A program made the translations under genes and the position numbers. Of a DNA stretch of 64,000 bases, positions 33,012-40,688 are shown piece after piece. The first letter of the stretch is position 1. Every line of letters starts with the position of its first letter. The notes under the pieces are model-generated. The model worked only from the letters and a program-made list of their open reading frames with translations. It did no database searches and was not told the DNA's origin. The stretch comes from an uncultured virus (IMG/VR IMGVR_UViG_3300044679_000029) (taxonomy: Duplodnaviria > Heunggongvirae > Uroviricota > Caudoviricetes), in IMG/VR virus record IMGVR_UViG_3300044679_000029, positions 1-64,000 of that record, one strand, 5' to 3'.

Positions 33012-34036
33012 ACCCTCAACCAGGAGTACACTTGAAAAGATCAATACATAGCAGAGCAGAAGTGGATGAAATCATCGTTAGAACGTGTCGCATGGAATCA
33101 CAGGTAGAACTGTTGGTGATCCAAATTGAGGAAGCCAAAATAGAACTACCATTCTTGCCGCCGATGCTACAGGCGAGAACCCTCCAAAATATCATTCAAT
33201 GGCAGAGTGCTATTTCGGATGTAGAGCGAACCATTGCTCGGGCAAAAAAGGCGCTAGTAATGATAATAGCGTCGAACAAGGACGTAGCGCGCGCATGAGT
33301 AGAAGCAGTCGAAAGAAAGAAGATGCGAAGGTTCTTTGTTGGTACGTTCGGAGGCACCTCGGACGGAAGCACGATACCGACCTGTATATAAGAGCGGTAT
33401 TTGCCATCCACGAGTTCAGGGCTAAGTACCCTGAAGTTCGTGTTGAGGAGATAGCTAAGTATGGCGACAAAGCTGGCAGTTAACGTACACGACGACAGCT
33501 GTATTTCCTGCAAGAAGCCCGTCGATCCCTCGAAGCAACGACAGGCTTTCATCCACGATCACTGCGAGCCAATTCAATTTTGGCCAAAGTGGCGGCGAGA
33601 GCAGGTTTTCGTAGACCGCGAGAAGGTTCTCGCCAATCGGGCGAAGAAGCTCGCTTCAGCAGAGGCATCTCGGTAGATGTGGGTGAGGACGCTGTGGGTC
33701 TTTGCGTCCCATCCTGTTTCAAAGAAGTTACTTCTCGTGCTCGGAACTGCGACGAAAAAGGCGCTCGGGTTCTGAACACACTGGTAGCAAACCCCAATCG
33801 GGAAGGCATTTATGGGCAGAAAGCTTTTGAGGTTTCTCGACGAGTTGAACGCAAAATCAGCGGACCGTCTCCCCGAACACACGATAGCAAGATTCATCCG
33901 GGAAGCAGTTGGGACTGATTCACCCGTCGATAATGCAGAGCTTGATGCACAGCTGGATCAGCTGATTGGGCTTGCAAAGCAGGCCCGAAATCAGCTGAAA
34001 TCTAAGCACAAGGAAAACGCAGAATATGAGAATTAG
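33008..34036 (+). other. small hypothetical ORFs (33008-33298, 33295-33483, 33461-33676, 33812-34036)
   Basis: Overlapping start/stop junctions lead into rpsL. Confidence 0.5.
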
Positions 34037-34439
34037 TCAGTTGGTCCGTTTGGGCCGAAAGAAAGTCCACAAGAAGAGCAAGTCGCCTGCATTGATGGGC
34101 AGCCCACAACTCAGCGGGACTGTTCTCCAAAGCAAGGTCATGAAGCCAAAGAAGCCGAATAGCGCAAATCGTCACATCGCGCGCATCCGACTGAGTAATG
34201 GCCGTGAAGTCACCGCTTACTGCGGTGGAGAGAACTCCAACGTGCAAGAGCACGCTCACGTTCTCGTTCGCGGTGGCCGAGTCCCGGATTTGCCGGGTGT
34301 GAAGTATCACATCGTACGCGGCGCTTTGGATTATTCCGGCGCCAATTGCATGAGCAAGTGCACCGCTGAACCCGGCAACGCTGGTGACAAGAAGATGCGT
34401 AACCAGGGCCGGTCGAAGTACGGTGTGAAGGCTCATTAA
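34026..34439 (+). CDS. rpsL: ribosomal protein uS12, divergent
   Basis: [73 protein letters not shown]. Confidence 0.95.
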
Positions 34440-35070: not shown

Positions 35071-35157
35071 GGGCCTGTGGCGAAACTGGTAGACGCACTG
35101 GACTCAAAATCCGGCGCCCTTCGATAAGGCATCTCGGTTCGAGTCCGAGCGGGCCCA
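35071..35157 (+). tRNA. tRNA-Leu (CAA); CCA end not encoded
   Basis: Acceptor stem GGGCCTG/CGGGCCC-A, D-loop TGGTAGAC, anticodon arm CTGGA-CT CAA AA-TCCGG, long variable arm, T arm GGTTCGAGTCC. Confidence 0.93.
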
Positions 35158-35599: not shown

Positions 35600-36232
35600 A
35601 TGAAATGGTTCTCAGAAGTAAAACCACTCGGGGACATTCGTCTCCCGGCTTTCATGGGTATCAGAATTCAGATGATGCCCGTGATTCTGGGCTACATGGA
35701 TAGCATTCCGTACGAGCTTCGGCACTTTCGAGAGACCATTCTCAGAATATTCTGCTTGATGGATCAGAAGCACATCGGACAGACTGGCTACTTGACCATC
35801 GATGAGAAGTTCGTCAGATTCGGTCAATTCCACCGGCGGTCGGGTTTGCACGTCGATGCTGGTGGGTGGGGTGGCAGTGGACCAAGGCATCCCGCCGCGA
35901 GCGCAGACAATGGCATGATCGTGACGCAGAGCCACGAGCACACTGTTGCCTACCACCAAGCATTCGAAGGTGAGATTGGTGAAGAGGGTGATTGCAAGTG
36001 TTTGCGTCGACAGGCAATAGCACCGAATCCTCTCAAGGCTTTCAAAGCCTACTGGCTCAGTGGGCTGACAGTCCACGGACACATCTCGCCAATGCTTCAA
36101 GACACAGCACGGCAATTCGTGCGACTGAGTTTGCCGTCTGACGCGCCGTGGTTTGACGGCTACACCGAAAACCCTTTGGGCGTCAAACCTACAGGTCCGG
36201 TGCTACCAAGACGCAAGTTCATGGATTTGTGA
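35600..36232 (+). CDS. 2OG-Fe(II) dioxygenase-like protein
   Basis: HRR.GLHVD (HxD), a distal His (VHGH) and RQFVRL; jelly-roll-like spacing. Confidence 0.6.
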   Translation: MKWFSEVKPLGDIRLPAFMGIRIQMMPVILGYMDSIPYELRHFRETILRIFCLMDQKHIGQTGYLTIDEKFVRFGQFHRRSGLHVDAGGWGGSGPRHPAASADNGMIVTQSHEHTVAYHQAFEGEIGEEGDCKCLRRQAIAPNPLKAFKAYWLSGLTVHGHISPMLQDTARQFVRLSLPSDAPWFDGYTENPLGVKPTGPVLPRRKFMDL

Positions 36233-36261
36233 TTTCGGGTCAAAATCTGGTATAAGATATT

Positions 36262-36911
36262 GATCCGCGAATCATCGCTTCGCGATGCATGAGGCGGTAG
36301 ATCAATCCTGGTCTGGATAGTTCCAGGACCTTGGGTCTATCGCCTCACGTTAACTCTGGGCCTGTAAGCGTGTGTGCCAGCACAGTATGAGAACATCCGG
36401 TCGTTACAGCCGGTTAGGGACCAGTGACCCCCGGACATTGGTCCGGGGATAGGCCTGATGTAACCTCCGTCGCTGGCTTGGCGACGAACCTGAAATGCGT
36501 GCTCATTTGTGGGCCGCTGATTGTAAGGGACAAGTCAAACCACTTGGCTGCGGGTCGCCACCGCGGTGTTTCGAGAATTATAAGTGGGCCAGGGTTTCTC
36601 GTTACCTGGCACTTTTCAAACTGCCCGGCCGAAACGAGACCGGTTTAAAGTGTTCGCGAACTTCAGATCAGTTGGGACTGAACTAGTTCCCAGGTCAAGT
36701 CGCGATCTAAAAATCTCCTACAAAAAGCCCGATCCTGCAAGACCGGGTAATAAAAAGGAGTAGCCTTGCAGGGCGTTTAACGGGATGACGTAAATCGGGC
36801 GCGCGAGGCTGATACCTTGCGATGCTGACAGAATACGAAAACTCTCGTCAGGTTTGTGCTCTGGACCCATGGGTGGACGCCGGGGCACAAACCTGCTGTG
36901 TTCTTCGCAGC
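36262..36911 (+). ncRNA. putative large structured non-coding RNA (~650 nt)
   Basis: Starts just after TGGTATAAG (36248); no credible ORF; at least 12 hairpins with G-U pairs on the plus strand. Confidence 0.65.
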
Positions 36912-36941
36912 ACAAACCCGTAGCAAGAAAGAGGCAATCAC

Positions 36942-37127
36942 ATGAGAACCGTTGAGTACTACTCCAAACTGAACGCGATCTGTGCTGAGTACTGCCCCAA
37001 GCTGGACGCGTGCGACGCTGAGTCCTGCTCCAAACTGAACGCGCTCAAAGCCGAGTTCAAGTCCAAGCTGGACGCGCTCGACGCTGAGTCCCACCTCAAC
37101 CAGCCCGCCGTCAGCACAAACCCGTAG
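36942..37127 (+). CDS. 11-residue-repeat mini-protein 1 (61 aa)
   Basis: GAGG SD in the linker; SKLnAl.AEy. repeats. Confidence 0.65.
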   Translation: MRTVEYYSKLNAICAEYCPKLDACDAESCSKLNALKAEFKSKLDALDAESHLNQPAVSTNP

Positions 37128-37145
37128 CAAGAAAGAGGCAATCAC

Positions 37146-37382
37146 ATGAGAACCGTTGACAAATTCAATTCCAATGAGTACTGCTCCAAGCTGGACGCGA
37201 TCAATGCTGAGCGCGACTCCAAGCTGGACGCGATCAATGCTGAGTACTTCTCCAAGCTGGACGCGATCAATGCTGAGCGCGACTCCAAGCTGGACGCGAT
37301 CAGTGCTGAGCGCGACTCCAAGCTGGACGCGCTCGACGCTGAGTACCACCTCAACGAGCCCGCCGTCAGCACAAACCCGTAG
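37146..37382 (+). CDS. 11-residue-repeat mini-protein 2 (78 aa)
   Basis: SKLDAINAERD repeats. Confidence 0.65.
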   Translation: MRTVDKFNSNEYCSKLDAINAERDSKLDAINAEYFSKLDAINAERDSKLDAISAERDSKLDALDAEYHLNEPAVSTNP

Positions 37383-37400
37383 CAAGAAAGAGGCAATCAC

Positions 37401-37817
37401 ATGAAAACCTTTGTTGACGAAATCAAGTCCAAGATGAACGCGTTCAGTGCTGAGTACTTCTCCAAGCTGGACGCGCGCGACGCTGAGTACAAGTCCAGGC
37501 TGGACGCGATCAGTGCTGAGTACAAGTCCAAGGCTGAGTTCAAGTCCAAGCGGAACGCGATCAATGCTGCGTACGACTCCAAGCGGAACGCGATCAACGC
37601 TGGGTACTTCTCCAAGCTGAACGCGTTCAGAGCCGAGTGCAGGTCCAAGCTGAACGCGCTCAGTGCTGAGTACGACTCCAAGCTGAACGCGATCAACGCT
37701 GGGTACTTCTCCAAGCTGAACGCGTTCAGAGCCGAGTGCAGGTCCAAGCTGAACGCGCTCAGTGCTGAGTACTTCCCCAAGCTGGAAGCGCTCATTGCTG
37801 AGTACCACCTCAACTAG
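37401..37817 (+). CDS. 11-residue-repeat mini-protein 3 (138 aa)
   Basis: About 11 repeat units. Confidence 0.65.
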   Translation: MKTFVDEIKSKMNAFSAEYFSKLDARDAEYKSRLDAISAEYKSKAEFKSKRNAINAAYDSKRNAINAGYFSKLNAFRAECRSKLNALSAEYDSKLNAINAGYFSKLNAFRAECRSKLNALSAEYFPKLEALIAEYHLN

Positions 37818-37859
37818 CCCGCCGTCAGCACAAACCCGTAGCAAGAAAGAGGCAATCAC

Positions 37860-38024
37860 ATGAGAACCGTTGACAAATTCAATTCCAAGCTGTACGCGCT
37901 CGGTGCTGAGTACGACTCCAAGCTGTACGCGATCAACGCTGAGTACAGATCCAAGCTGAACGCGATCAATGCTGAGTACTTATCCAAGCTGAAAGCGCTC
38001 GACGCTGAGTCCCACCTCAACTAG
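37860..38024 (+). CDS. 11-residue-repeat mini-protein 4 (54 aa); not in ORF track
   Basis: MRTVDKFNSKLYALGAEYDSKLYAINAEYRSKLNAINAEYLSKLKALDAESHLN*. Confidence 0.65.
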   Translation: MRTVDKFNSKLYALGAEYDSKLYAINAEYRSKLNAINAEYLSKLKALDAESHLN

Positions 38025-38066
38025 CCCGCCGTCAGCACAAACCCGTAGCAAGAAAGAGGCAATCAC

Positions 38067-38348
38067 ATGAGAACCGTTGACAAATTCAATTCCAAACTGA
38101 ACGCGATCAGTGCTGAGTCCAGGATAAACGCGATCAGTGCTGAGTACGACTCCGAGCTGAACGCGATCAATGCTGAGTACTGCTCCAAGATGAACGCGCT
38201 CAGTGCTGAGTACTGCTCCGAGCTGGACGCGTGCGACGCTGGTCACTGCTCCAAACTGAACGCGCTCAAAGCCGAGCTCAAGTCCGAGCTGGACGCGCTC
38301 GACGCTGAGTCCCACCTCAACCAGCCCGCCGTCAGCACAAACCCGTAG
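38067..38348 (+). CDS. 11-residue-repeat mini-protein 5 (93 aa)
   Basis: Same unit; its 3' part closely matches mini-protein 1. Confidence 0.65.
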   Translation: MRTVDKFNSKLNAISAESRINAISAEYDSELNAINAEYCSKMNALSAEYCSELDACDAGHCSKLNALKAELKSELDALDAESHLNQPAVSTNP

Positions 38349-38362
38349 CTCAAACCGGAGGT

Positions 38363-38572
38363 GTGCAAGTGATAATCAAGCCGAATCAGTTGACTCCCAT
38401 CCCAGAGGGCATCAAGATCAAGAAGATTTCGGCAGGCGAAACCAGCGGAGTCTTCTTTGTGATCAGCCACATCACAAGGTTCATGTCGCGGGAAAACAAG
38501 AATTCGCGGCGTAAGCCAGACCAGTATCAGCCCAGAAATCTCTCGGGCTTCGATCCGGTCGAGAGCGAATAA
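38363..38572 (+). CDS. hypothetical basic protein
   Basis: GGAGG SD precedes GTG codons. Confidence 0.45.
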   Translation: MQVIIKPNQLTPIPEGIKIKKISAGETSGVFFVISHITRFMSRENKNSRRKPDQYQPRNLSGFDPVESE

Positions 38573-38724
38573 TCTTCTAGACTTTCTCCCGGGCTAAGGT
38601 CATGCCTGGTAATGGCCCTAATTAGTCAATGCGGGCTAGAAAGCGGGAATCCCATGAAGTGGACCTAGCGATCCGACAATCTAATGCATAGATTAGCACT
38701 AGAATAACTCTGAGAAAACTGTGA

Positions 38725-38837
38725 GCCCACAAGAAGATATCTTCTTGTATATACGTTTATAACCCCCCAATCTGACAGAAATTGTCGGAACGGCAATGGG
38801 AATAAACGTGTATACGTGAGGATATCTTCTTGTGGGC
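38725..38837. repeat. long imperfect inverted repeat containing a 20-bp palindrome
   Basis: GCCCACAAGAAGATATC...GATATCTTCTTGTGGGC arms; ACAAGAAGATATCTTCTTGT palindrome at 38729-38748. Confidence 0.85.
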
Positions 38838-38936
38838 AATTAAGATTTGTCGGTTTTTAGGTTGACTTCCTATAACATCTGAATTATACTAGACATGATT
38901 AGCGGAACTATAATTTAGTACTAGGAAGACAAACTA

Positions 38937-40688
38937 ATGCCTTTATATACCGACGCAGTTCAAGGGAGCTTATTTCCCTCTAGTAACAGTCAACCCAATC
39001 CTTTATTTACTTATCTCCAGGGGTTTATTCCCAGAAAACTCAAGGACCTATTTAGGTGGTTGGAATATCTATCCTATAACTCAACGCATATCTATGCCGG
39101 ACTATATAAGCTCGCGGATTATTCGGTTACAGACGTTCAATACTTAACCGATTCCACCCAGGAAAAAACTCGGCATAAAGATTTACTTGAGAAGACGTTA
39201 CACATTAAATCGTTACTTAAAGCAGCGTCACGCGACCGCCTTATATACGGAAATAGTTTCATATCTCTATACATGCCGTTTATCCGCAATATGGTGTGCA
39301 CTGGTTGTAAGATTAAGCGCAATATAGATACTGTCGACTATAAGTTTAAGTGGAAGAATCTTACGTTTAACTGGCTTTGCAAGGAATGCGGCCAATCAAA
39401 CATGACTGGCGTCGACGATTTTGAGGATATCAAAGTCCCCAACCATAAGCGTATTAACGTTATCCGGTGGGACCCCAAGCTGATAGACATCGATTATAAT
39501 CCCCTAACCGGTGAAAGCACAATCTACTACACGATTCCAAAAGAAGTTAAGGAGAAGATTCGTGCTGGTAATAAGCATCTTCTAAATTCGATGCCTGTTG
39601 GATTTTTAAAGGCCGTCAAAGAAGATCGTCTATTTAAGTTCGACAGAGGTCAAGTCTTCCATATGAAGATCGATGCACCAGCCGGTATCGATTCTCAGTG
39701 GGGCTTCTCACCGTTACTAGCAACTATTCCTAGCTTCCTGTATGTGGCCGTATTACGTAAGGCCAACGAAGCCATCGCATTAGATTTCGCTGTACCTCTT
39801 CGTATTCTTCACCCGGCACAATCGTCTTCTAACGCTGATCCGGTGTCGACTATTAACTTAGGTAACTGGACTGAGAAGACACGCGAAAATATTCGTAAGT
39901 GGCGTCGAGACCCCTTGCACATCATGTTTGCGCCTGTGCCATTAGGAATAACTCAGATGGGTGGGACTGCAAAATTGCTCTTAACTGCAACTGAGATTCG
40001 TGACGTAGAGGATAACATTATTACTGCTCTAGGTATTCCTCGTGAATTTATTTACGGCGGGATGACTATGACCGGGTCTAGCGTAACACTACGCATGTTA
40101 GAGAACCAACTTCTAACTCAGACCAAAGATCTAGAAGACTTAATGGGTTGGATTGACGACAAGTGTGCGACATTCTTAGGGTGGGGTAAGATACATACTG
40201 AGCTACTGCCGTTTAAACTTGTGGACGATGTTGCGCAAAAAAATGTTCTAGTTCAAATTAATCAAGTTAAACCGATTATTTCTGATACTACAATCGCAGA
40301 AGTCTTCGGCTACGATCTTAAGAAAGAGCGAAAGCTTAGAATGCAAGAAGCATTGGACGAGGCGCGCTTCCAGATGGAAATGCAGAAGAGCGTTTCTGAT
40401 ATACAAAATAACCTTGGCCAGCAAGCACGGACACAAGCGGGATCCGCACCGCCATATAATCCTCAGCAGATTGTACAACAGGCTGATCAACTCGTACAAC
40501 AGTTATCGGGACTCGATCACGGTTCCCGCAAATCTGAACTAGATAAACTAAAAAAAGAAGACTTCGTTCTATACGCGGTAACAGCGAAACGTCTTGAGGA
40601 CTATAACAATACTCAAACTCAGGCAGCCAAAAGTCAACAAACAGGTGGCGGACAACCGGCACCGCAACCGTCGGGCGGAGCAAAGTAG
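38937..40688 (+). CDS. portal protein with Zn-ribbon insertion
   Basis: D.LIYGNSF, RWDPK.I.I, WG.SPL..., I.ALGIP.EFI.GG portal-like motifs; CTGC/CKEC insert; Q-rich C-terminus. Confidence 0.75.
   Translation: MPLYTDAVQGSLFPSSNSQPNPLFTYLQGFIPRKLKDLFRWLEYLSYNSTHIYAGLYKLADYSVTDVQYLTDSTQEKTRHKDLLEKTLHIKSLLKAASRDRLIYGNSFISLYMPFIRNMVCTGCKIKRNIDTVDYKFKWKNLTFNWLCKECGQSNMTGVDDFEDIKVPNHKRINVIRWDPKLIDIDYNPLTGESTIYYTIPKEVKEKIRAGNKHLLNSMPVGFLKAVKEDRLFKFDRGQVFHMKIDAPAGIDSQWGFSPLLATIPSFLYVAVLRKANEAIALDFAVPLRILHPAQSSSNADPVSTINLGNWTEKTRENIRKWRRDPLHIMFAPVPLGITQMGGTAKLLLTATEIRDVEDNIITALGIPREFIYGGMTMTGSSVTLRMLENQLLTQTKDLEDLMGWIDDKCATFLGWGKIHTELLPFKLVDDVAQKNVLVQINQVKPIISDTTIAEVFGYDLKKERKLRMQEALDEARFQMEMQKSVSDIQNNLGQQARTQAGSAPPYNPQQIVQQADQLVQQLSGLDHGSRKSELDKLKKEDFVLYAVTAKRLEDYNNTQTQAAKSQQTGGGQPAPQPSGGAK

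Follow-up and report, generated by a model that had tools for sequence, protein, structure and literature searches.

Background

Tandem arrays of related genes have been described both in large phages and in poxviruses. In phages G and 121Q, more than 30 similar genes stand in tandem (Hua et al. 2017, PMC5646251), while the adaptive gene amplification of poxviruses has been termed "genomic accordions" (PMC3953438), according to the excerpted text of the two articles. The array described here belongs to an uncultured virus of the Caudoviricetes (IMG/VR record IMGVR_UViG_3300044679_000029). The analyzed stretch of 64,000 nucleotides, referred to below as the window, covers the initial 64 kb of a virus contig that measures 117,101 bases and has an estimated completeness of ~65%. 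Upstream of a portal gene it contains a putative promoter, a long folded leader, five short open reading frames (ORFs) built of 33-nt units and called cassettes, a small closing ORF, and a structured spacer.

The locus is rather probably the product of a recent tandem amplification and contraction of an accessory mini-gene, which encodes a coiled-coil protein and is expressed from a phage promoter via a long structured leader. This reading rests on the anatomy of the locus, the different copy numbers found in close relatives, the helical repeat class of the cassette proteins, and the absence of a dedicated enzyme from the contig.

Anatomy of the cassette array

The array lies on the plus strand between two copies of a 17-nt core, CAGCACAAACCCGTAGC, which form its left (36908-36924) and right (38333-38349) borders. 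With one copy in each internal junction there are six copies of the core, 100% identical to one another, and none occurs elsewhere in the contig. The five paralogous ORFs align with conserved heads and tails and comprise 31 recognisable units: cassette 1 (36942-37127, 61 aa, four units), cassette 2 (37146-37382, 78 aa, five units, pI 4.5), cassette 3 (37401-37817, 138 aa, 11 units and a truncated one, pI 9.35), cassette 4 (37860-38024, 54 aa, four units), and cassette 5 (38067-38348, 93 aa, seven units). Every cassette has a Shine-Dalgarno sequence (SD), AAGAGG, 7 nt upstream of its ATG. An identical 48-nt block containing the tail codons, TAG, SD, and ATG constitutes all four internal junctions (37102-37149, 37357-37404, 37816-37863, and 38023-38070), and near identity extends around it over ~85 nt. 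The junctions have weak folds that mostly leave SD and AUG unpaired, and no fold is conserved among them.

An earlier note on this DNA, prepared by a model from the letters alone, had described a promoter at 36248, a hairpin-rich non-coding stretch, and five paralogous mini-ORFs with 4-11 units; all of these are present. It also reported an identical 42-bp linker carrying the SD and sometimes the stop: the identity holds in 4/4 junctions, the length has to be corrected to 48 nt. Similarly, the short ORF and the structured sequence that were said to close the locus both exist, the latter being 364 nt long rather than ~270 nt.

Several units are nearly or fully identical. Units 2.1 and 2.3 agree at 33/33 positions, as do 3.6 and 3.9, and the pairs 1.3/5.6, 1.4/5.7, and 3.5/3.8 agree at 32/33. 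The pairs 3.6/3.9 and 3.5/3.8 mark a 99-nt block duplication within cassette 3, and the last three units of cassette 1 resemble those of cassette 5 at 27, 32, and 32 of 33 positions. The coexistence of invariant linkers and variable bodies is adequately explained by a recent duplication of cassettes on top of older unit variation, the bodies differing mainly in which of the already diverse units they contain.

Copy number in relatives

Parts of the stretch are contained in 24 public sequencing runs, four of which (X2, X3, X5, and X10) were compared in detail. In the freshwater DNA run X5, a 382-nt contig joins position 36907 to 38333, at the left and right border cores, with zero cassettes between them. 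The joint has a 114-nt side and 17 nt in common, and its flanks show 0 and 2 differences. The depth of this contig equals that of neighbouring contigs, and the run yields no array contigs. As the shared 17 nt are too short for a jump in a 31-mer graph, the junction is presumably carried by reads. The X5 relative therefore combines a leader and a closing ORF with zero cassettes. In the soil RNA library X10, a 654-nt contig spans 36650-38408 with ~350 nt between the outer cores, i.e., about one cassette, and its units differ by 14-16% from the best-fitting window units. The flanks of both relatives are 95-100% alike to those of the window. Together with the five cassettes of the window and the unit duplications inside cassettes, these forms bear out the view that the array is expandable, which the earlier note had taken.

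Parts of cassettes 1, 3, 4, and 5 are reproduced exactly in X2 (peat DNA) and X3 (a peat RNA library), cassette 4 being matched exactly in both. A single unit, at 37048-37080, is also shared with a contig of otherwise unlike sequence in X2 and X3; hence, something unrelated in the peat samples, an organism or an element, carries this matching unit. RNA-library contigs cover the leader, the cassettes, and the closing ORF. Neither X3 nor X10 has a contig over the portal gene, their contigs stopping at 38699 and 38408, respectively, which is not taken as evidence of a transcript end.

More distant relatives do not have the array. The array, the leader RNA, and the upstream genes were found in 0 of the 80 related IMG/VR loci (with portal proteins ~46-53% identical to that of the window), and none of these loci contains a comparable tandem repeat. 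Likewise, the array or the leader RNA was found in 0/5 complete related genomes; as a control, the same profile gives eight matches in its own contig. Broader searches were also blank, and since close relatives may escape them, they are not evidence of absence. In IMG/VR, no relatives of the array, the junction, or the RNA were retrieved with the portal protein alone, junction DNA, a leader stretch, a degenerate unit, or the cassette alignment. Nothing was returned from JGI metagenomes by the portal alignment or a leader 22-mer, or from GTDB genomes by an alignment of remote homologs or of the cassettes. GenBank phages gave nothing with DNA or with protein P0141 as the query, and cassette 3 retrieved from them only a weak Bacillus phage row (E 7e-4). 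The locus is thus a lineage-specific, dispensable insertion in a variable island.

Enzymes that could drive cassette exchange were sought in the 117-kb contig. A reverse transcriptase (PF00078) gave no match at E<=1 (control positive in 4/14 genomes), a tyrosine recombinase (PF00589) no match (control positive in 14/14), and a serine recombinase (PF00239) no match either.

Coding status of the cassettes

The five ORFs share a reading frame, with TAG as the only stop between them: between 36909 and 38369, this frame contains eight TAG codons and zero TAA or TGA. The codon before the conserved tail is TAG in two cassettes (3 and 4, which end at this early TAG) and CAG or GAG in the others, while the DNA downstream is unchanged; the seven-residue tail may be dispensable, or the copies may be too young for drift. 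Both the common frame and the variable codon before an identical tail would suit a single polyprotein of ~480 residues, produced by TAG read-through, suppression, or recoding. Nevertheless, TAG is a normal stop that ends 25/121 long ORFs, the portal gene among them, no suppressor tRNA accompanies the Leu-CAA and Ile-TAT tRNAs, the only ones present, and the large ORFs are not lengthened when TAG is opened, so that the marks of stop-codon recoding are absent. Moreover, each cassette has a strong SD and ATG of its own, and the common frame amounts to roughly a single 1-in-3 coincidence, because the units are 33 nt long and the junctions are mutual copies. A polyprotein is therefore very unlikely.

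Compared with the unit consensus, the plus frame contains 11 synonymous and 114 non-synonymous codon changes, and in the remaining five frames 15-31% are synonymous. The changes affect 28.7% of A sites (89 of 159 changes), 23% of T sites, 5% of C sites, and 2.8% of G sites. This pattern might suggest that the array acts as a DNA-level repeat, with binding sites for a replication, partition, or packaging protein, and that the ORFs are incidental. G and C hardly vary within the unit, third codon positions included (2.8-5% change per site vs 23-29% at A and T), no frame has a synonymous excess, some units contain a perfect 14-nt palindrome, and the array is located just upstream of the portal gene. 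However, every cassette is headed by an SD and ATG and ended by a stop, its plus translation is in register with natural 11-residue-repeat proteins and gives a confident helix model, and relatives live without the array, something hardly to be expected of an origin or a pac site. Little credence can be given to a purely DNA-level role.

The predominance of non-synonymous changes, commonest at A, also recalls targeted hypermutation of the diversity-generating retroelement (DGR) type. This origin of the unit diversity is extremely improbable: T changes nearly as often as A, the contig has no reverse transcriptase, a template/variable repeat pair is absent, and the near-identical unit pairs indicate duplication instead of mutagenesis.

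Two antisense ORFs, at 36777-37859 (minus strand, 360 aa) and 37980-38315 (minus strand, 111 aa), cross the array and its junctions in the same frame. A gene caller could easily choose wrongly between the strands here. Could they represent the real gene? The open antisense frame crosses three junctions, beyond its end, at 36747-36728, lies a hairpin that has a T run and resembles a terminator, the first plus-strand codon positions vary most, and the leader folds on the minus strand as well (z -5.5). On the other hand, the frame is codon-aligned antisense and stays open only where units do not use TTA, CTA, or TCA; a lone TTA, at 37980, interrupts it. Its GTG lacks an SD, the cassette profile matches the minus strand marginally (E 3.3e-4, vs 1e-46 on the plus strand), and the adjoining genes and the promoter motif are all on the plus strand. 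A minus-strand gene is thus scarcely credible. The plus frame of the cassettes probably codes for protein, as judged from the SD-ATG starts, the helix model, and the register shared with a natural repeat class.

Cassette proteins

The unit consensus is S-K-L-[N/D]-A-[I/L/F]-x-A-E-[Y/S/R/C]-x. When plotted at 11 residues per three turns (by arithmetic, 98.2 degrees per residue), L3, I6, and Y10 are adjacent on the 11/3 helix and form a hydrophobic stripe, opposite to a stripe of small residues (S1, A5, and A8). E9 and K2 occupy one flank, and the other, exposed flank consists of the three most variable positions, 4, 7, and 11. The net charge of the cassettes ranges from -7.4 to +6.6. The AlphaFold2 (AF2) model of cassette 3 is all helix (helices 2-40 and 44-137), with a predicted local distance difference test score (pLDDT) of 92.2, and the ESM Atlas contains the same protein letter for letter (pLDDT 0.82).

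A two-copy model of cassette 2 scored 0.55, compared with 0.02 for the best control; the mark for a dimer is reached by 21/30 proteins solved as one-chain pairs and by 0/23 solved as single chains. The runs have at least 71% of contacts in common and a partner pLDDT of at least 81. The modelled interface is antiparallel and follows K2/L3/I6/N7/E9/x10 of each unit, that is, the L/I/Y stripe. These models support, without proving it, the pairing of cassette proteins as an antiparallel coiled coil, which might also form in vivo.

A phmmer search with cassette 3 against 1.84 billion representative proteins gave 80 matches at E<=1e-3, including seven at E<=1e-10, with 8e-19 as the best value. Of the 80, 72 repeat themselves with a period of 11, 22, 33, or 44. 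All 18 matches that were inspected are repeat proteins; 12 of these line up with cassette 3 position by position, in the common register x-A-[ILV]-x-A-[DE]-[YWF]-x-x-[KR]. The cassettes thus appear to belong to a broad, nameless class of 11-residue-repeat proteins, within which common descent and convergence are not separated. No family in Pfam, PHROG, NCBIfam, or PADLOC covers the cassette proteins, NCBIfam giving only sub-threshold coiled-coil rows. No PDB structure matched the cassette 3 model at E<=0.001 in Foldseek, where only generic long helices came up, and the structure rows of the Atlas are likewise generic. A literature search on the repeat string, DUF7666, 11-residue repeats of tape-measure proteins, and hendecads in bacteriophages found nothing relevant.

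Some of the remote repeat proteins have features of their own. An N-terminal domain without annotation (MC.F.SW ... GHG ... ECTDFS.P.NFP) is common to P0122, P0136, P0141, and P0143, whose tails end in AW[KR]; together they look like an undescribed family. One protein with this domain is called Gam by JGI, on a sub-threshold match to Mu Gam (27.9 bits, cut-off 28.3). The repeat regions of P0127, P0129, P0133, and P0143 touch the ZorA tail models of PADLOC (12-17 bits, E 5e-4 to 1e-2). Mimicry of Zorya was dropped, as the window proteins give no ZorA-tail match and the remote homologs only weak ones. An array of precursors of ribosomally synthesized and post-translationally modified peptides was set aside, as no modifying enzyme lies nearby. 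Also set aside were a resemblance to T4-type capsid-targeting heads and a motif reminiscent of ice-binding helices.

Promoter motif and leader RNA

The motif TGGTATAAG at 36248-36256 on the plus strand is of the extended -10 type (TGnTATAAG). It is present in eight copies in the window (at 143, 377, 24146, 24480, 32162, 32351, 36248, and 54135), compared with 0.39 expected, and 0/100 shuffles reached eight. The 117-kb contig contains 13 copies, 13/13 on the plus strand. Other copies are mostly located 30-70 nt upstream of an SD-ATG, and the motif usually extends as TGGTATAAGATA. Its over-representation and placement before genes suggest that TGGTATAAG is probably an early or middle promoter of the phage. 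Unlike the remaining copies, the one at 36248 is followed by ~685 nt without a gene.

This leader (36257-36941, plus strand) folds better than shuffled sequences, with z -3.9 on the plus strand and -5.5 on the minus strand. In the relatives X5 and X10, every small ORF of the region 36284-36579 is disrupted by indels (1, 2, and 8 nt long), which supports the non-coding status of the leader. Large structured RNAs represented in Rfam 15 include GOLLD, ROOL, HEARO, and the group I and II introns. No Rfam 15 family, and none of these large RNAs, matches the leader at the gathering score in covariance-model searches; only chance-level rows appear at E<=10 in 36248-36941, and across the window tRNA-Leu alone passes the gathering score. 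The leader is present in contigs from two RNA libraries, and a second lineage with this RNA was found neither among the related loci and related complete genomes nor in IMG/VR or JGI metagenomes. Of its individual parts, 36272-36628 (plus strand) corresponds to a single X3 contig with sequencing adapters at both ends, a depth of 30.5 (4 for the upstream gene), and the fold of a closed multi-branch domain (z -3.5). This is a weak hint at a discrete RNA species, as contigs cannot show ends, strand, or level.

A GC-rich hairpin with 15/16 bp and a following U-rich stretch, detected as an inverted repeat and in the minimum free energy (MFE) fold, precedes the first core at 36849-36895 (plus strand). 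It is possibly a leaky terminator. Its arms contain GGTTTGTGC (36851) and GCACAAACC, the latter common to every core, and the X10 relative, which skips 36835-36886, does not have it. The terminator-like hairpin of the minus strand at 36728-36747 has on the plus strand a loop, CCTGCAAG, that can pair with CTTGCAGG 35 nt downstream, a possible pseudoknot. Among the substitutions of X5 and X10 examined against the MFE fold, four break a pair, five keep a pair, and one is unpaired; the list is partial, with 21 differences unlisted. Between 36640 and 36907, X5 has 0/268 differences, and X10 has 0/185 over the part that it covers (36650-36834). A special conservation of this segment was dropped as a candidate, as a 244-nt part of the portal gene is equally free of differences in X5.

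The properties of the leader invite another explanation, in which the locus is a dedicated cassette system whose structured RNA guides cassette gain, diversification, or linker processing. Among the 13 promoter copies, only this one has such a gene-free stretch downstream, the leader is strongly folded, and its arm GGTTTGTGC is complementary to GCACAAACC in every core. The identity of the junctions across 48 nt and the coverage of leader, cassettes, and closing ORF by RNA-library contigs can be added. Nonetheless, X5 has the RNA and the closing ORF with zero cassettes, and X10 keeps its cassette without the hairpin that bears the complementary arm. The contig encodes no reverse transcriptase or recombinase, the junctions lack a conserved fold, and the RNA was found nowhere else. 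Such a system is quite unlikely. The earlier note had proposed it as a new system coupled to a non-coding RNA and had named beforehand, as the observation to speak against it, relatives with the one component and not the other, which is what X5 provides. Other findings also speak against this proposal: searches of the contig turned up neither a reverse transcriptase nor a recombinase, the variation shows no adenine specificity, and the cassettes look like ordinary SD-ATG genes of a recognisable repeat type.

Proposed origin and function

Under tandem amplification of an accessory mini-gene, the locus would constitute a single transcription unit of a large, lytic-type phage. A promoter of the phage-wide extended -10 type would drive the ~685-nt folded leader, followed by a variable count of mini-genes (0, 1, and 5 seen) and then by the small orphan ORF. 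Each mini-gene would be translated separately from its own SD and ATG into a single-helix protein of 54-138 aa, and the L3/I6/Y10 stripe would pair the helices into an antiparallel coiled coil. The array would have arisen by recent tandem duplication of one mini-gene. Its expansion and contraction would take place at two levels, by homologous recombination or by slippage: that of whole genes, with the identical junctions of 48-85 nt as the sites, and that of the 33-nt units. Such behaviour is in keeping with other large viruses, in which genes for interaction with the host are known to be amplified and to contract. Gain and loss are assigned to these ordinary processes because the contig has no reverse transcriptase or recombinase and the mutations are not adenine-specific. 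The proteins may be dispensable accessory factors that bind a host or phage partner via the variable 4/7/11 stripe. The leader could either regulate the mini-gene unit or be a separate RNA product.

A more elaborate version is unlikely. In it, the cassettes would be free-standing decoy stalks that poison a protein of the host or of a rival phage by assembling with it, this protein having the same type of repeat as an oligomerising stalk, and both the 4/7/11 stripe and the cassette number would change fast in an arms race. The leader, as a large structured phage RNA of a new class, would set the timing or the dose of the unit, giving an RNA-led gene accordion for anti-defence proteins.

Several points weigh against the amplification of an expressed coiled-coil mini-gene. 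The copy-number evidence consists of one contig for each relative, at depths of 3.7 and 3.1, and the X2 and X3 contigs are interrupted at every junction, which leaves the original assembly as the source for how many cassettes there are and in what order. As the contig is ~65% complete, a distant enzyme might be encoded beyond it. The synonymous excess expected under purifying selection is absent in every frame. Among distinct variants, 4/34 are synonymous compared with 21/99 possible changes, a value below random and not significant (P=0.075). Translation of the cassettes is deduced from the sequence features given above, and the roles of the cassette proteins and of the leader are conjectural. 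The dimer was modelled without alignments, and coiled coils model easily. The remote matches are repeat proteins, with inflated E-values and with descent inseparable from convergence, and cassette 5 has no relative of similar length among 5.8 billion proteins.

If the amplification of an accessory mini-gene is true, a gene of a wild phage has been caught at 0, 1, and 5 copies, growing at two nested scales. Expansion by its own identical junctions alone would offer a simple model for the growth of paralog arrays in large phages. Two objects also deserve attention in their own right: a widespread, nameless helical module of 11-residue repeats, here free of other domains, and a ~685-nt leader RNA without a family.

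Closing ORF and spacer

The small closing ORF (38363-38572, plus strand) follows a GGAGG at 38357-38361 and encodes 69 aa from GTG 38363 or 67 aa from GTG 38369. The second start is more likely, being 7 nt after the GGAGG and the same as in the only homolog. This homolog, P0121 (67 aa, 97% identity), is the single one in 5.8 billion proteins. The ORF is kept in the 0-, 1-, and 5-cassette forms. Its AF2 model is poor (pLDDT 68), and the ESM Atlas contains nothing usable for it.

The 364-nt non-coding spacer (38573-38936, plus strand) folds with z -9.05. Between the closing ORF and the portal promoter it includes a 36-nt inverted repeat (38725-38760/38802-38837), 89% complementary and with a 41-nt loop. 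The portal promoter itself, at 38862-38890 on the plus strand, is predicted from sequence and is sigma-70-like. An Rfam row for mir-1277 in the spacer (36.8 bits, gathering score 81) was rejected, as it reflects the long hairpin only.

Genomic context

Genes for a multisubunit RNA polymerase and for a DNA polymerase are present in the contig. Downstream of the spacer, a 583-aa protein (38937-40688) matches the annotated portal protein of Salmonella phage Arash and has more than 879 metagenomic homologs. Its closest relatives are P0001, with 92% identity, and P0002 and P0003, with 84%; P0003 is encoded on a 98-kb contig. Related complete genomes measure 185-198 kb. The G+C content is 50-55% over ~33-38.6 kb and ~43-46% on either side. 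Within this G+C-rich island, upstream of the leader, lie a gene for ribosomal protein uS12 (34026-34439, plus strand; PF00164, E 7.9e-29) and, at 35071-35157 on the same strand, a tRNA-Leu(CAA) whose variable arm is long. Their presence beside a structured leader suggests a translation-related theme. The gene just upstream of the promoter (35600-36232, plus strand) belongs to phrog_8970. Hypothetical proteins 25-32% identical to its product occur in jumbo phages of Erwinia, Pseudomonas, Salicola, and Salmonella, as well as in Rhizobium and Sinorhizobium phages.

Comparison with known systems

Arrays in which short identical sequences alternate with variable bodies behind one promoter bring to mind integrons and clustered regularly interspaced short palindromic repeats (CRISPR). 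The present bodies, unlike those of CRISPR, are 165-417 nt long, mutually homologous, and coding, with no repeat-spacer logic. Unlike in integrons, no tyrosine recombinase is found in the contig, and the cassette ends have no inverted repeat or attC-type palindrome. The exclusion of both systems by the earlier note was right.

Among helical repeat proteins, the cassettes are like apolipoproteins A1/A4/E (PF01442) in their period of 11 residues, in having long single helices, and in the straight stripe that small residues form. Their score for that family is 24.6 bits, compared with a gathering cut-off of 90. Late embryogenesis abundant (LEA) group 3 proteins and type I antifreeze proteins also form amphipathic helices from 11-mer repeats, and the cassettes differ from such helices in not being Ala-rich. 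The metagenomic repeat proteins P0122, P0127, P0136, P0141, and P0146, with repeats of D-A-[DE]-Y-x-x-K-R-x-A-L, agree with the cassettes in period, register, and conserved Ala, acidic, and aromatic positions. Unlike the phage cassettes, which consist of the repeat alone, most of these proteins have a globular N-terminal domain (DUF7666 in P0127) and a short Trp tail. All ten that were looked up are singletons without a meaningful name, and no Pfam family covers their repeat.

As for gene amplification, the arrays of phages G and 121Q are similar to the present one in being head-to-tail paralogs in a large phage, read as tandem duplications of a resident gene in the excerpted text of the report (PMC5646251). 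They differ from it, as far as that text describes them, in that the genes here are tiny (54-138 aa), made of 33-nt repeats, joined by a 48-nt identical junction, placed in one frame, and present in 0, 1, or 5 copies in relatives; the arrays have no sequence relation to each other. In poxviruses, the accordion is said to be exemplified by K3L. As in the accordions, going by the excerpts of their description, the copy number of a dispensable gene varies here among near-identical viral genomes, and the copies then diverge (PMC3953438). That account bases the poxvirus cases on experimental evolution, with a host factor that was known, whereas the route by recombination is inferred here. A new class of genetic system is not supported by the present evidence. 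The locus has the paralogs arranged head to tail with near-identical junctions, and the copy number differing between close relatives, by which gene amplification is recognised. What is unusual about it is the combination: a mini-gene that is itself built of repeats, repeated as a gene in one frame behind a 685-nt folded leader, and consisting of a free-standing repeat module that is otherwise attached to domains.

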